Origin: Ostreococcus lucimarinus | Taxonomy: Eukaryota | Strand: one strand, 5' to 3' | NCBI GenBank assembly: GCA_000092065.1 | Contig: CP000582.1 | DNA: 64,000 nt | In this document: positions 39,784-64,000 of the stretch, piece after piece | Layout: every line of letters begins with the position of its first letter | Position numbering within the stretch: the first letter of the stretch is position 1 | Translations under genes and position numbers: made by a program | Notes under the pieces: model-generated | What the model saw: the letters and a program-made list of their open reading frames with translations, nothing else | What the model was told of the DNA's origin: nothing | The model's database searches: none

Positions 39784-42700
39784 TCACATGATTTTGATCG
39801 CTCGCTCAAATCCAGCCGGCTTCCCCTGACGGCTAGCCGGCCTTCGCGGACCTCTAACTTCGCGCTCGATCCCCAGCGTCGATTCGCAAAAGCCCTCTTT
39901 GGCGATGCGAACCAATTTACTCGATATAACCAACTCGTCGTCGTCCAAGATTTCATACCGCGGCGGGTGGCCGATGTAGAACTTCCATTTTGCGAAGTCC
40001 TCATCCGTCGCTTCGAGCCTCGTCTTGATCCGAGCCTTCACTTCCCCGAGCGTCTCACCTTCACACGTGCGAAGTAACATCGGTTCATCGTAGGCATAGA
40101 ACTGGTTAGGATTGGACAAGTCTTTGGAAATGTTGTACACACGCAAGAGTCTGTCTTCCTCTGACTCGTCATCGGGAACTTCCTCCGCACGAAGCGTCCA
40201 ATATTGGTCGTTGATATCTGCGATATCCTTTTCCTCCTCGAAAACTTTGTAGATTTGCGAGTAGAAAAGTTCAAGCAGACGTAATTTGCGACCGCCGACT
40301 CGAGTACCGAGCCTAGATCTGACCTCTTCGAGGACATCCTTCACCGCTGCGCTCTTCGACAGACGCAGTTGGAATTCTTCAACGAGCTTTGTGTTCAGTC
40401 CATGGAAGAAAACTTTTAGCGTCTTCAATTCCTGGAGTTCGGGCAGCGGCATGTCTAAGACTTCGTAATAGAGCACGTCGCTTTGCTGGTTTTCCAGCAT
40501 TTTTATCAAAGTATCCGCGCCTCTAAATTGGAAGCTTGCACTCTTTGGACCGTTCGTGTACACGTGATGCGCGGTGAAGCGCAATCGAAGAGGATCGTCC
40601 AAACCGATCGCCGAAGCCAAAACATCAGCGACTTGATCGTAACTCATCATTTTCGTCAACTCCAGAGTCACTTTGTCCACCTTAGGGGCCTCCAGCTCTC
40701 TGAAGTGAACGATTTGATGATTGTGTCTGAAGTCCGCATATTGAACCACGTTGGGGAACTTTAGTGAATCTTCCATGTCTTCAGTGATTTCTGGTTGAAT
40801 AAGCAAGATATCACCGTTACCGAGCTGCAACGTCTTGCTACCGTCATCGGGGTCGCTCAACGGATATGTTTTCACTTGTTTGTCCGATAATTGATCAATT
40901 TGAATCTTACTTTCGCGAACGAACGCAATTTCCTCAAACATGAGCGTTGACGCGGTACTGGCAAACCCTGCCATGGATTTGATCTTCGGCATGTAGGTAC
41001 TGAGCGTCTCCTCGGGACTCGCGTAAAGCGTGCCACAGTAACTCAACCGCGCCTCATGCGGATTGTAAAGCTTGACGTGCAACCAAATGTCTCTTTCTGG
41101 GTCACTGTTCGCGAACGCATCATCGTCAAGCTCTTCCAGGTAGAGTCTGAATTCGCCTGATGAAGCATGCTGTGAGTTAGGCACCGTGTATTTCAGCCGT
41201 GTTTTTTCAACCGTCCAGGTCGGTGGGGTATTTGCGTGGTCTGGAAGCGCGGTGGCTGGCCGAGATGTTTTGTTGCGTCGTGGCGAGTAAGTCCAGTACC
41301 GCTGCCTCTCAGCTGGTATTCCGAGCTTCTCGGAAACGAGCTCCCTAAACTTTGTAAATGTCGACTTTTTATGCAGTCGGAACCTTTGCGCGCTCTCAAA
41401 ATTGCCCAGATCAAAAAACTTCTCCGAAGCGATCTGCCGCTCTAAATCTTGCCTGGTCAAAACCTTGATGATGGTGTACAGATGCGCCTCCTTCTTTTCC
41501 TGCGCCTCTTTCTCCTTTGCCTTCTGCTCCTCAGCGAAGCGGGCCTGGAGGTATTCCGTGAGATGAGACTTATTGGCGACGCACATGATTTGATCCATGT
41601 CATCCTCTCGAATGTACACGAGCATGTAGGCGCTACTCACTTTTTGGAACCGCAAGTTCGGCGCCACGCGGACGTTTGTCGAGTCATCGTCTGCATCCAT
41701 ATCGCTATCGACCGCGGCTGCGCCGCCGCTTCCGTACTGTTCCACCACCGACTTTTCTGCGGTTTCTTTCGTCACGTGTTCGTCATCAAACTTGAACCAC
41801 TGCGCATCTTCCGCCTGCAAATTGGGCTTGACAAACGCGTAATAATGTCCACCATTTATCCCCCCGCTGTGTACTAAGACGCTATGAAGCTTATACTTGT
41901 TGCGAACACTCTTGTCGGACTCGGGAACGAGGTACTTACGATCACCCACGTCGAGATCGAGCTCTTCGGGGAACTCATATCTATCATGGATCTTCACCAT
42001 GGTGTCTCGTTGGTAATCGTACTCAAAACGCTTCAGCTGAATCTGCAACACGGGAGGAAAGTCGTGGAACAGCGTGCCTTTGCGAGCGTCTTGCAATCCG
42101 TGTCCCTCGGCGCGATACTTGTTCTCGCCATCAAGTTTTTCAATCTCAGTGTAACGATCAAAGGACGCATAAATATCTTTGCATCCCTTGACGTCTAACT
42201 GAAGATCGAGAAACTCCTCCTTGCGTTCGCTCTTGTAATCAACGTTGATGCACTCGATGAAGTTCGTCGTGTGCCCTTCGAAGAGCTTCTGAATCGTGCC
42301 CTCGACGCACGTTTGTTTCATGGCCTCTTCAAGCTTATCCTGAAGTACACGGTTGAGTTCCTGTACGTCGTGTTGCATGAAGGAATCGTAAGAGTCCCAT
42401 CCAAACGATCGCGTCAAATCCTCCGTGCTCACGTCGCCTTCTTTGGCGTACTGAAGACAGTAGAACACCGATTGTAACGCTAATGGCATCGATGTGTGCG
42501 CCTCTTCCGTTTCGTTCGTAGGCATGTGATAGACCGCGCGACGAAAGGAGGGAATGTGATAGAGCGTCTGCAAGAGCGAGTTCATGTAACACGTCGCCCC
42601 TTGATTCTTCAGACCGATCAGCCCTGTCTCTTTGCGCGAGTCGTATTCGCTATAAAACGCACTCTGCATCGGTCGGTCGACTTCGTGCTCCTCAATCGGC

Positions 42701-43413
42701 GTCACATGCACTCGGAAATTCACACAGCCTTCGGCGTCAACGTAGCCCTTTTCAAAAACGTCTTCGCGCGTGATGAACGACGCGAACCCCCAATCCGCTT
42801 CGCGTCTGTCGAACGTGTGCGACGTTTCCTTCGATTCTACCACCGACGCATCCGTCGGATGAAGCAGCTGCAATTCGAACTTCGCGTGCCTTCTCCACTC
42901 TCTACTCATGTCGTCCTCGATTCGGCGCGGCTTTGTCGCCCCCGTGTCCAAGAACAAGCTCACCTGCGCCGGCGTCTCCGATTTCGAGTTCAAATTACTC
43001 CCGAACGGATACATCGCCAACCGAAAGAGTGTATCTCCGCACTCAAACGTTTGACTCACCACCTTCGCGTCTCGTTTCTTCCATCGCGAGAACTCGGCGC
43101 GCCACGAGAACGTCGTCGGCTCCGCCGTCGAGAACGCCAACTCGCTATCTTCCGAACCGCTCGACATCGATCGATCGTCGTCTTCCGCGTCCGACGCGTT
43201 GCCGTCGTCGGCATCTAACGACCGCATCTCCACTGCTCGCGCGGGCGTCGTTCGTCCGGACGCGTCGTCGTCAGTCGTCGAGGCGGGTGCGGATTCCAGA
43301 TCGATTGCCGTCGCGATTCTCCGTCGGTTTCGTCGCGCGCGAAGCGCGCGCGCCCGATCGAGCGCCCGCGAGCGATGCGCACCGTCTTGCGAGGCGATAT
43401 CATCGCCTGACAT
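39784..43413 (-). CDS. USP7: Ubiquitin carboxyl-terminal hydrolase 7 (USP7/HAUSP; plant UBP12/13-type) with N-terminal MATH domain
   Basis: ATG at 43413. MATH: FSWRAEFSRWKKRDAKVVSQTFECGDTLFRLAMYPFG. Cys box: GLKNQGATCYMNSLLQTLYHIPSFRRAVY. His box: YKLHSVLVHSGGINGGHYYAFVKP. Long UBL-repeat C-terminal region. 1209 aa single exon. Confidence 0.9.
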   Translation of the reverse strand: MSGDDIASQDGAHRSRALDRARALRARRNRRRIATAIDLESAPASTTDDDASGRTTPARAVEMRSLDADDGNASDAEDDDRSMSSGSEDSELAFSTAEPTTFSWRAEFSRWKKRDAKVVSQTFECGDTLFRLAMYPFGSNLNSKSETPAQVSLFLDTGATKPRRIEDDMSREWRRHAKFELQLLHPTDASVVESKETSHTFDRREADWGFASFITREDVFEKGYVDAEGCVNFRVHVTPIEEHEVDRPMQSAFYSEYDSRKETGLIGLKNQGATCYMNSLLQTLYHIPSFRRAVYHMPTNETEEAHTSMPLALQSVFYCLQYAKEGDVSTEDLTRSFGWDSYDSFMQHDVQELNRVLQDKLEEAMKQTCVEGTIQKLFEGHTTNFIECINVDYKSERKEEFLDLQLDVKGCKDIYASFDRYTEIEKLDGENKYRAEGHGLQDARKGTLFHDFPPVLQIQLKRFEYDYQRDTMVKIHDRYEFPEELDLDVGDRKYLVPESDKSVRNKYKLHSVLVHSGGINGGHYYAFVKPNLQAEDAQWFKFDDEHVTKETAEKSVVEQYGSGGAAAVDSDMDADDDSTNVRVAPNLRFQKVSSAYMLVYIREDDMDQIMCVANKSHLTEYLQARFAEEQKAKEKEAQEKKEAHLYTIIKVLTRQDLERQIASEKFFDLGNFESAQRFRLHKKSTFTKFRELVSEKLGIPAERQRYWTYSPRRNKTSRPATALPDHANTPPTWTVEKTRLKYTVPNSQHASSGEFRLYLEELDDDAFANSDPERDIWLHVKLYNPHEARLSYCGTLYASPEETLSTYMPKIKSMAGFASTASTLMFEEIAFVRESKIQIDQLSDKQVKTYPLSDPDDGSKTLQLGNGDILLIQPEITEDMEDSLKFPNVVQYADFRHNHQIVHFRELEAPKVDKVTLELTKMMSYDQVADVLASAIGLDDPLRLRFTAHHVYTNGPKSASFQFRGADTLIKMLENQQSDVLYYEVLDMPLPELQELKTLKVFFHGLNTKLVEEFQLRLSKSAAVKDVLEEVRSRLGTRVGGRKLRLLELFYSQIYKVFEEEKDIADINDQYWTLRAEEVPDDESEEDRLLRVYNISKDLSNPNQFYAYDEPMLLRTCEGETLGEVKARIKTRLEATDEDFAKWKFYIGHPPRYEILDDDELVISSKLVRIAKEGFCESTLGIEREVRGPRRPASRQGKPAGFERAIKIM

Positions 43414-43621
43414 CAGCGCCGGTGAGGCGCGTCACCGTGTGGGGAGGTGGAGAGAGTGCGAGCGGAGATTAGACAGTTGCACTCGGGACGACGGTTGAAC
43501 CGACGGCGAGCGGCGAGCGGCGGATGTTTCATCATTCATTCATGCCTTTGCGACGACGCGTTTCGACGAGCGGTGAGCTAGATGCTAAAGTTGAGGAATC
43601 GTTCGGTGCGCGCGGAGGGCG

Positions 43622-44182
43622 TCATCGCGCGCGCGCGGCGGCGCCGACGCGAGATTTGACGTGCTGCTGCTGCTGCGCTCGAGCCGTCGGGCGGGTGTCC
43701 TCGGGAACGAACGGGTCGCCGATGGCGCCGTGCACGGATCTTCGGAACGCGGGAAACACGACTGGGTCGCGAATTTTGCTCGCGATGAATTTTTCGAGCT
43801 CTGACTTTTCGGGTGAGGACTTTTCGGCGTCGCGAGCGGCTTTGGCGTACGAATCAGCCTTGCGTTTTTCTCGCTTCTGCTGCGAAAGCAGCGGCCCGAG
43901 ATTTCTACCGCCGCCGCCGCCGCCGCCGCCGGTCGAGGAAGTTCCCGACGATTTTCCCGTTCCCGTCCGTTCGCTCAAGTTGGCCGACGCCTTCCCGGCG
44001 TACGTCGCCGAGCTCGTCGCCGATTTCTCGGGCGATTTCTCCGCCGACGATATCGGACGCGGCACTTTCTGTGACTCCTGCGTCGCACCCTCGGTTTTCT
44101 TCCCCTGCTCCTTCCCGAAGCTCTGCGTCTCGTTCTCACTCGCTCGCTTCGCCCCGTTCCCAGCCTTTCGCTCTCGTTTTCG
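43622..44182 (-). CDS. K/E/S-rich low-complexity ORF in frame with the upstream hypothetical gene (possible downstream exon or readthrough extension)
   Basis: No ATG. The ORF-track start is GTG at 44065. Open frame back to the TAG at 44186. Composition is Lys/Glu/Ser-rich, unlike the Arg/Ala artefact frames. A (GGC)n tract encodes poly-Gly. The tail is FIASKIRDPVVFPAFRRSVHGAIGDPFVPEDTRP. Confidence 0.3.
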   Translation of the reverse strand, partial: RKRERKAGNGAKRASENETQSFGKEQGKKTEGATQESQKVPRPISSAEKSPEKSATSSATYAGKASANLSERTGTGKSSGTSSTGGGGGGGGRNLGPLLSQQKREKRKADSYAKAARDAEKSSPEKSELEKFIASKIRDPVVFPAFRRSVHGAIGDPFVPEDTRPTARAQQQQHVKSRVGAAARAR

Positions 44183-44185
44183 CTC

Positions 44186-44581
44186 CTACTTCGACAATCT
44201 ACGATGCGCCGAGAAGAAGGCCGTCTTGGGCGAGTGACGAGAGAGCACCTGCCCAAAATTCGTCCCATCGTCCACGCTCAGCCGCTTCCGCTCGCCTCGA
44301 TCGCCGTCATCGTACACCAAACACACGTGGATCTTCTCCTTCAGCGCGTTGTCCCCCGTCTTGGCCAGTTCTTTGGAGAACGCCGCGTTCGATTTATGCG
44401 CCGCCGCCGCGCGCGCCACGTCTCGCAGAAATTGGTTCAACCGCTGTCCGTTGTGCACTCCCACGCGTCCGACGCGCGCGAGCCCACCGGAACCGGCGCG
44501 CGATTTATCCCCACCGCCCTCGCCGCCGTAGAACGATCGCTCGTCCACGCGCAGGTCGAACGGCGTCTTGTACTTTTCCAT
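44186..44581 (-). CDS. Hypothetical protein (131 aa as written; may continue into the downstream K/E-rich ORF)
   Basis: ATG at 44581: MEKYKTPFDLRVDERSFYGGEGGGDK...KIHVCLVYDDGDRGERKRLSVDDGTNFGQVLSRHSPK. Non-GC-artefact composition (Lys, Tyr, Phe, Asn codons). Terminated by TAG at 44186..44188, which is in the same frame as ORF 43622..44065. Confidence 0.4.
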   Translation of the reverse strand: MEKYKTPFDLRVDERSFYGGEGGGDKSRAGSGGLARVGRVGVHNGQRLNQFLRDVARAAAAHKSNAAFSKELAKTGDNALKEKIHVCLVYDDGDRGERKRLSVDDGTNFGQVLSRHSPKTAFFSAHRRLSK

Positions 44582-44634
44582 GTCTCGGCGCGCGGCGTTA
44601 GTTGGCGCGCGCGCGGTCCGCAGACCGCGGCGCG

Positions 44635-45447
44635 ATGTCGCGCGCGCCGTCGATCGCCGCGCGGCGGTGCGCGAGCGTCGCGTCGACCGTCCCGACGCGC
44701 GCGCGACGGACGAATCGCGCGCGCGGCGCGGCGGCGTCGAGGAATGCGGACGCCGAGACGAACGCCGAGACGGACGACCGTCGCGACTCTCGACGCGCGT
44801 TTCTCGCGCGGGCGTGCGCGGGGACGGCGTGCGCGCGCGCGTCGTCGTCTCAAGCGTCGGAAGCGCGCGCGCCGAGCGGATACGACGCGCCGACGGTGGC
44901 GCCGAGCGGGTCGACGACGCGCGCGAACGCGTTCGAGTCGTCGCGCGCCGGCGGCGAATCCATCTCGCCGTACGCGTATCGCCTCCGATGGCCGAGCGGA
45001 TGGTGCGCGCTGCGCGACCTCGCGAGCGCGCGAACCGTGGGCGTCGACGCGTCGTTTAAGGATCCGCTGGACGAGGCGAGCACGCTCGCGGTGTTCGTGA
45101 CGCGCGGCGTTCGCGAACGCGACGTCGCGTCGCGATACGGAACGCTCGATGAAGACGCGAGACGACGCGCGGACGCCGCGCCGAATCAAAAAACCATAGG
45201 CAAGAGGACCGTGCGCGTGTCCGTGCCGCGCGGCGACGGCGCCGGTCGCGTCGTCGTCGAGGCGCACGAGATCGAAACCGAAGTCGGCGGCGGCACCGCC
45301 GGCAGGTTCGGCGCCGCCGTCGAGCTCATCCGCGTCTGGGTAGCGGACGGCTCCGAGTGGTGCGTTCGCGCCACGGCGAGTAAATCCGCGTGGCCGCGCG
45401 TTCGCGGCGAGCTTCGTCGCGCCGTCGATAGCTTTGAGTTCGCGTGA
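44635..45447 (+). CDS. PsbP-domain protein (PsbP-like/PPD), thylakoid lumen, twin-arginine signal
   Basis: The ORF-track start is TTG; first ATG is at 44635. Transit-like N-terminus, then the TAT motif DSRRAFLARACAG. PsbP-fold blocks: YAYRLRWPSGW, GVDASFKDPLDEASTLAVFV, KTIGKRTVRVSV, ELIRVWVADGSEWCVRATASKSAW. Confidence 0.7.
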   Translation: MSRAPSIAARRCASVASTVPTRARRTNRARGAAASRNADAETNAETDDRRDSRRAFLARACAGTACARASSSQASEARAPSGYDAPTVAPSGSTTRANAFESSRAGGESISPYAYRLRWPSGWCALRDLASARTVGVDASFKDPLDEASTLAVFVTRGVRERDVASRYGTLDEDARRRADAAPNQKTIGKRTVRVSVPRGDGAGRVVVEAHEIETEVGGGTAGRFGAAVELIRVWVADGSEWCVRATASKSAWPRVRGELRRAVDSFEFA

Positions 45448-45677
45448 CCGTCGCGCGGCGTTAGACGTTCGTAGTCGAGAGTCGCGTGACTTTTTGGGGT
45501 GGGTTGAATGACTTGGGCACGCGATTCAACGACGGGTAGGGTCGTTTGCGTTTCTTAGTTTTTATAGTAAAAGTGGTGACTTGGGCGTCGGTAGATCCAA
45601 ATCCGCGCGCGCGCGGAGACGCCGCGGAGACGCCGCGGGGACGCTCGAATTCCGCAATCATCACACCCCGACGCGCG

Positions 45678-62844: not shown

Positions 62845-64000
62845 TCACTCCTCGAACGGTTGTTCGAGTAACTCTTTTCGAATCCACACCGCGTAATCGT
62901 CGCCGTGCGTTGCGAGCTCGAACTCTGCGATTTGAGCGAGTATTTCACCCGGAACGTCGTATCTCGGCCCTAGCTTGACGATGATTTTGTCATCGATGAC
63001 CGCGACGTATAAATCGCTCTCGGCGATTTTGATGTCAACTCTGCTCTCGCAGCACACGTTGGCGAGCTTACGGCAGCTCAACAAAGCTCGAATTTCTGAT
63101 GTTAGCGATTAGGACCAACCCAAGTTTTCGTCGCAGCACCAAATGTGCGGGCCAAACACGCAGGGAATGCCGGGATGCAGAAGCGTGTACGCGTAACCCA
63201 AACCGAGACGATCGAGTGGAAACGGCCAGTGATTCTGCGGGTATCCGGTATCGTGGTTGTCGAGAAATGTCACAGCACTTTGCGGTACCCAGCCGGCAAG
63301 CCCAGGCATGCCGCCTTGCTGGTCTCGTAGCCGCCAAAACTCTACTCGCTTGACTGCTTCTTGTAGAATTCCCTTGGTCACGAAGTCGAACAACGCCGCG
63401 CATTCGTCTGCGGCGTTCAACCAATCCACGAGCACGCGTCTCGGCTTGTCTTGATTGTACTCGAGAAAGCTTCCCGACCACGTCATCCCGACCCAGTTCT
63501 CGCCGACGCAGAATTGCTCAAATCCAACCGTTTTCTCCACATACTCTCTCACGAAATTCGGAGCGTAGCCTTGGACGAAATCGAACCTCCATCCGCTGAA
63601 ACCGATGTCATCTTTCAACCAGTTCAACCACTCGATGATCGCTTCGCGAATCTCGGCGTTTGTGTGGTCGAGATCAGGGGCGATTTCGATCGAGTCGCCA
63701 CTATCGTTGGCTCCTTGACCTTCGCGAAAAAATGGATCGTCGCCGACGATGGCGTAAGCTCCCCAATTTATTCGTCTCCCGCTCGGCGTTACTTCGTCCG
63801 CAAACGAGATGAAGCGGCCATCCGAAGCGTACTCAGCGCAACGATGGTTGATGACGATGTCGCACACGGCTACTATTCCGGCTTTTTTCAGAGCCTGTAC
63901 CAACGATTTAAGCTCCGCTTCATCGCCGTACTCGCTACCGTCCAAGTTGTAAATTTCCGATGGCATGTAACCGTGCTCGTCTACCGATAACGACGGTGGA
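62845..64000 (-). CDS. AMY: Alpha-amylase (GH13, plant AMY-type), 5' end beyond window; catalytic core and C-domain separated by one in-frame TAA
   Basis: 63966..63109: GYMPSEIYNLDGSEYG, IVAVCDIVINHRC, GWRFDFVQGY, FCVGENW, FLDNHDTG, HPGIPCVF. The coding sequence continues upstream to the window edge as ...PPSLSVDEHGYMP. TAA at 63109..63111. Then same-frame ORF 63084..62845 encodes the AMY C-domain: ...SRVDIKIAESDLYVAVIDDKIIVKLGPRYDV...HGDDYAVWIRK. Confidence 0.7.

Follow-up and report, generated by a model that had tools for sequence, protein, structure and literature searches.

A segregating nonsense allele at codon 132 of a DUF7138-like gene in the reference strain of Ostreococcus lucimarinus

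The protein XP_001416362.1 of Ostreococcus lucimarinus CCE9901 is 131 aa long, and the reading frame that encodes it continues well beyond its stop codon. Very probably, this locus is an intron-less gene of 319 codons, belonging to a branch of the DUF7138 family, which is truncated in CCE9901 by a genuine C>T nonsense allele that segregates in the species. The interruption is an ordinary low-frequency nonsense variant, and neither an intron nor a case of programmed readthrough. All coordinates below refer to the window, i.e., the whole stretch of 64,000 nucleotides from CCE9901 that was analyzed here.

One gene, interrupted at codon 132

The open reading frame (ORF) begins with an ATG at 44581 on the minus strand, runs for 131 codons (44581..44189), and is closed by a TAG at 44188..44186. 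Past this TAG the same frame stays open for 187 more codons, with neither Met nor stop, until a TGA at 43624..43622. On re-reading of the sequence, the coordinates given in the preliminary description of this locus (ATG, TAG, open frame, and the GT and AG sites discussed below) all proved correct. In an exact-sequence look-up, the 131-aa ORF was identical to XP_001416362.1 (ABO94655.1, UniRef100_A4RT80, ‘predicted protein’ of O. lucimarinus CCE9901); the reference annotation (44186..44581, minus strand, 131 aa plus TAG) therefore ends at the TAG. The complete ancestral coding sequence is a single exon at 43622..44581 on the minus strand, with 319 sense codons followed by the TGA, and is interrupted in this strain at codon 132. 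The basis for this model is a set of uninterrupted proteins of 318–322 aa from conspecifics and from the sister lineage (P0001–P0006, P0055, P0056, P0058, and P0070). The former coding sequence downstream of the stop comprises codons 133–319 (43625..44185, minus strand) and encodes a basic helix (ERKRERK...), a disordered linker rich in K, E, S, and G, and a conserved C-terminal motif; the FIASKIRDPVVFPAFR region falls within these residues.

The homology search that had been proposed for the joined product, run with an X at the stop, found full-length proteins of 318–322 aa with 85–99% identity and 100% query coverage, all of which read ...RRLSKQERKRERK... and have Gln at the stop position. 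Distant orthologues (33–37% identity) are also continuous, with Arg or Leu at this position. It had been considered that orthologues might end where the 131-aa ORF ends; the outcome was the opposite, as they extend to about 319 aa. An uninterrupted protein is likewise encoded by an MMETSP transcript (P0058, 320 aa, ‘type:complete’), and the conspecific contigs that carry the uninterrupted gene share 99.2–99.8% DNA identity with the window. In a comparison of the window with the sister lineage (about 93% DNA identity), dN/dS was 0.25 for the part before the stop and 0.37 for the part behind it; both values are below 1, and the continuation therefore evolves as a protein.

Both halves are thus parts of one gene, and the downstream part is conserved coding sequence, more than would be expected by chance. 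This agrees with the preliminary description, which had joined the 131-aa ORF and its K/E/S/G-rich continuation into one gene, as the uninterrupted relatives of 318–322 aa now bear out. It had also held that the continuation is no GC-frame artefact, an opinion strengthened by the dN/dS of 0.37 and by the invariant motif DPVVFPAFRRS..GAIGDP. The same source had left room for two unrelated elements, in which case the sequence behind a short gene would be non-coding or expressed on its own. The reference annotation, which stops at 131 aa, fits such an arrangement; however, no relative between 33% and 99% identity has the two halves apart, the 187 codons downstream of the TAG contain no in-frame ATG for re-initiation, and purifying selection acts on the codons of the downstream part. 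The probability of two separate elements is accordingly close to nil.

The premature stop (TAG, 44186..44188, minus strand) differs from the sense codon by its first base, window position 44188, which is T here and C (CAG, Gln) in most conspecifics. When 101 nt were aligned with five conspecific contigs, this base was the sole mismatch (T in the window, C in 5/5). Codon 132 is CAG in the sister lineage as well, and plant relatives have R or K at the stop position. A C>T transition at window base 44188 turned CAG (Gln132) into TAG. With sense codons in the outgroups, the stop is the derived state.

Sixteen of the contigs in hand carry C at 44188 (L001–L005, L015, and L016–L025) and five carry T (L009–L013), the latter from five different runs or assemblies. 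Two of the T contigs, L010 (SRR1179203) and L011 (SRR23274481), show 100% identity with the window, the former over 6.4 kb and the latter over 5.6 kb; together with L026 from these same runs, they are probably independent sequencing of CCE9901 or its clone. The other three (L009, L012, and L013) are divergent environmental contigs with 11–15 mismatches to the window, and they differ among themselves at other SNPs. This suggests that T occurs on different haplotype backgrounds, with the reservation that metagenome contigs can be consensus mosaics. One more contig stops exactly one base before the SNP, which is typical of an assembly-graph bubble in which both alleles are present. When metagenome contigs from JGI and TARA were scanned with a pattern blind to the allele, C was present in 10/10 of the contigs retrieved, and proteins with the Q allele were found on 205, 93, and further contigs, compared with at most about 10 for the 131-aa form. 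T is therefore a minor, low-frequency allele in wild populations, carried on backgrounds that differ from the reference.

Were the strain really CAG, with the T a mistake of base calling or assembly, the prevalence of C among conspecific sequences would be accounted for. However, the T allele is genuine, because five other assemblies carry the same TAG; these are independent short-read or metagenome assemblies, two of them identical to the reference over 5.6–6.4 kb. An error in the reference is thus very improbable.

As a side observation, window position 44375, where the codon for Ser69 has its third base, is tri-allelic. Read on the minus strand, the window has C, most contigs have G, and L012 and L014 have T; none of these alleles changes the amino acid.

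Variants of this kind are to be expected, because in the related O. tauri the mean number of nonsense SNPs per wild strain is 14, with a skew toward low frequencies (PMC5498103). Like them, the O. lucimarinus allele results from one base change that turns a sense codon of a haploid picoalga into a stop, is the less frequent allele in nature, and is carried by a strain isolated from the wild. In contrast to those cases, it sits in a reference genome and has shaped the annotation. Literature searches found no earlier description of this specific O. lucimarinus nonsense site.

Readthrough, splicing, and the amylase stop

If UAG were decoded often enough to yield a useful amount of full-length protein, the allele would be functionally near-neutral. 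The fully open downstream frame is compatible with such readthrough, as is the persistence of the allele in wild samples on backgrounds unlike the reference. However, a young polymorphism would leave the downstream frame open in any case, and the stop is a derived minor allele, absent from all relatives, rather than a conserved feature. TAG is, moreover, a common and genuine stop in the window, where it ends 10 of the 22 long ORFs; it is a normal stop in this genome. In eukaryotic termination, a purine at +4 favors termination, and UAG-CARYYA is the leaky type of context. Here, the context is AAG-UAG-GAG-CGA, with G at +4, and it matches neither CARYYA nor CUAG. Because of this context, and because the stop is derived and rare, efficient readthrough is unlikely, and a near-neutral allele maintained in this manner is an improbable explanation. 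The evolved readthrough that had earlier been listed as an alternative is likewise at odds with a stop that derives from a CAG codon, is a minor allele, and has the context TAG-G.

The preliminary description had preferred a 126-nt spliceosomal intron at 44123..44248 on the minus strand, which would remove the stop in phase and yield a protein of 277 aa. The required dinucleotides exist, with a GT at 44248 (GGGCAG/GTGCTC) and an AG ending at 44123 (GACGCAG/AGC), and the interval between them is a multiple of three in phase 0. However, 707 GT..AG pairs of 30–500 nt span the stop, and 256 of these are in frame with an open product. One in-frame GT..AG interval over the stop is thus expected, since 256 equally valid ones exist, and this one has no CTRAY branch motif inside it. 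It codes for residues 112–153, and its removal would delete eight invariant residues (H116, P118, A121, R128, K131, E133, R134, and K135) and would take away the final beta-strand of the folded domain as well as the SK-x-ERK motif that is common to the land-plant relatives. The 42 codons of the interval are kept in the conspecific full-length proteins, among them the transcript-derived P0058, and in all orthologues. The interval and its splice-site dinucleotides are invariant in the conspecific contigs compared site by site, and a look-up of the exact 277-aa spliced product among about 15 billion proteins found no entry. Over 41 codons within the interval dN/dS was 0.6, a value inflated by a one-residue indel that simple pairwise alignment handles poorly, and to which no weight is given. 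The interval is coding sequence and not an intron, and the mechanism preferred at first is now extremely unlikely.

The codon-132 stop had also been paired with a second interruption in the window, in an alpha-amylase gene at its right edge (about 62845..63999+, minus strand), where an in-frame TAA at 63111..63109 separates ..DENLGWS from SLTSEIRALL... No near-identical uninterrupted protein was found for this amylase, and the members of the cluster formed by its C-terminal piece, which come from environmental contigs, are short fragments of 64–78 aa in 10/10 cases; for these reasons, the interruption seems to be fixed in the species. A search for conspecific DNA across this stop, made via the neighboring PC4 gene, returned only a reference-identical run. 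The pairing does not hold, as the amylase interruption appears fixed in conspecifics whereas the TAG at codon 132 is a minor allele; the two stops do not share a cause. In two related proteins, P0018 and P0019, GPHFW is followed at once by ‘VG...’, which looks like reading on into an intron. In addition, an in-frame interval of 24 nt (GTTGGT..CTAAC..CAG) spans the amylase TAA, a length that would be extremely short for an intron.

Fold, family, and conserved segments

The folded N-terminal domain of the protein (codons 1–128; 44198..44581, minus strand) adopts a beta-grasp fold of the ubiquitin-like type and is a homologue of the Pfam domain DUF7138. The stop lies directly after this domain, which the truncated product keeps. 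Its likeness to ubiquitin-like and Ras-association beta-grasp domains (plexin RBD, 3h6n; RalGDS RA, 3kh0; ubiquitin) is one of fold only, as sequence identity is 4–14%, and a sequence profile search of the PDB gave only noise (E of 0.24 or worse). Unlike these domains, that of O. lucimarinus has inserted helices at residues 48–83. It also differs from ubiquitin in that it has no C-terminal Gly-Gly, and for this reason it is not a conjugatable modifier.

Behind the domain, residues 145–225 have pLDDT values below 50. The gene contains a (GGC)n tract that encodes poly-Gly (43907..43930, minus strand); it is (GGC)8 in the window and varies in length among conspecifics, with 8–10 Gly in P0001–P0006 and P0058. 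In P0007 and P0008, which come from long-read metagenome assemblies, the frame is lost at this tract.

The best-conserved segment of the whole protein is found near its C-terminus, at codons 265–290 (F..SKIRDPVVFPAFRRSVHGAIGDP; 43712..43789, minus strand), and is lost by the TAG allele. Across nine orthologues, down to 33% identity, the columns F265, K269, D272–S282, and G285–P290 are invariant, which corresponds to the pattern F..SK.RDPVVFPAFRRS..GAIGDP. The motif is also present in further relatives (P0076–P0079), and the segment is probably a short binding motif.

A profile built from the Mamiellales orthologues retrieves at least 30 proteins of 370–560 aa from bryophytes, lycophytes, ferns, gymnosperms, streptophyte algae, and Cymbomonas, none of them characterized. 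When ten of these were scanned with Pfam, DUF7138 was detected in nine, in eight of them above threshold. In an hhalign comparison with DUF7138 proteins, the probability was 98.5% and the E-value 2.4e-15 over 108 columns from the N-terminal Met, with an aligned span that extends from MEKYKTPF (opposite MESFATPY) to SKQERKR (opposite SKRERKG). A Pfam scan of both halves, the joined protein, and eight orthologues gave no significant match, the window protein and its close orthologues having none at E≤10; the relative P0079 scored 11.8 bits against DUF7138 (PF23596) and did not reach the gathering threshold of 27 bits. Since the Mamiellales proteins lie beyond the range of the Pfam model, they are better regarded, on the strength of the profile comparison, as a divergent branch of DUF7138 than as a recognized member. 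Literature searches for DUF7138, for the protein accessions, and for those of the runs and samples gave no match.

The Viridiplantae proteins with DUF7138 (PF23596), e.g., Marchantia MPTK1_5g09620, Physcomitrium A0A2K1JYF4, and those of Selaginella, Mesostigma, and Cymbomonas, share with the Mamiellales proteins an N-terminal layout that runs from MEx[FY]xTP[FY] to NTNF..H.P...F.V..K.SK.ERK, behind which both have a long disordered central region and, at the C-terminus, a short motif that is conserved. However, they are longer (370–560 aa vs 286–365 aa), and their tail is the Cys-rich FH.C..D...GPSPAGPI, whereas DPVVFPAFRRS..GAIGDP is found in Mamiellales instead. An hhalign comparison of the two tails gave E 0.19, a vague and non-significant likeness that is counted as no evidence.

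A relationship with the RNA-binding proteins Stm1 and HABP4 had previously been suggested. The protein has in common with Stm1, HABP4, and SERBP1 a disordered region rich in K, E, S, and G, but its conservation resides in a UBL-type domain and in a C-terminal motif that is unrelated, and no match to Stm1_N or HABP4_PAI-RBP1 was obtained in Pfam at E≤10.

Adjacent genes and consequences of the allele

On the opposite strand, an ORF of 237 aa (43524..44237, plus strand) overlaps the orphaned C-terminal coding region. Gene-calling programs report it as a gene on the TAG-allele contigs L009–L011 and on a few other Logan/ENA contigs, and it has neither an NCBI record nor a Pfam match. This ORF is probably an antisense artefact of high GC content, preferred only where the sense ORF is interrupted.

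At about 39784..45500, the genes are, in order, a PsbP-like gene, the UBL-fold DUF7138-like gene, and a gene for a USP7-type deubiquitinase of 1209 aa with MATH, UCH, and USP7 C-terminal domains. This order is kept in all conspecific and sister-lineage contigs (L002 and L006–L009). The proximity of a protein with a ubiquitin-like fold to a deubiquitinase may be a coincidence in a compact genome.

In strains with the TAG allele, ribosomes would end at UAG-G, so that only the 131-aa ubiquitin-like domain would be made and the next 561 nt would become 3′ UTR; the young age of the mutation alone would have kept the downstream frame open. The product would lack the basic helix, the linker, and the invariant motif at the C-terminus. 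The architecture of the family, with a UBL-type domain and a C-terminal linear motif as two binding modules, points to an adaptor. Judging from conservation, the allele would be a partial or complete loss of function, tolerated by the haploid alga, because the most conserved motif would be missing. It is also conceivable, if unlikely, that the TAG allele is a maintained polymorphism and that the free UBL domain which it yields has an altered or dominant activity, e.g., one favored under viral or nutrient pressure, or that the allele is partly rescued by readthrough. Such a reading draws on the position of the cut, exactly at the boundary of the UBL-fold domain, and on the presence of the allele on several sequence backgrounds in the sea.

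The main value of a truncated nonsense allele as the explanation lies in annotation hygiene and a corrected gene model: XP_001416362.1 (131 aa) should be flagged as a truncated allele of a 319-aa gene, and no intron should be modeled. The interrupted gene gives no evidence for unusual splicing or decoding in Ostreococcus. More generally, an orphan gene of Mamiellales is now placed in the uncharacterized, Viridiplantae-wide DUF7138 family, whose domain is shown to have a ubiquitin-like fold. For the study of this family, CCE9901 is a natural C-terminal truncation mutant, which can be compared with strains that carry the Q allele.
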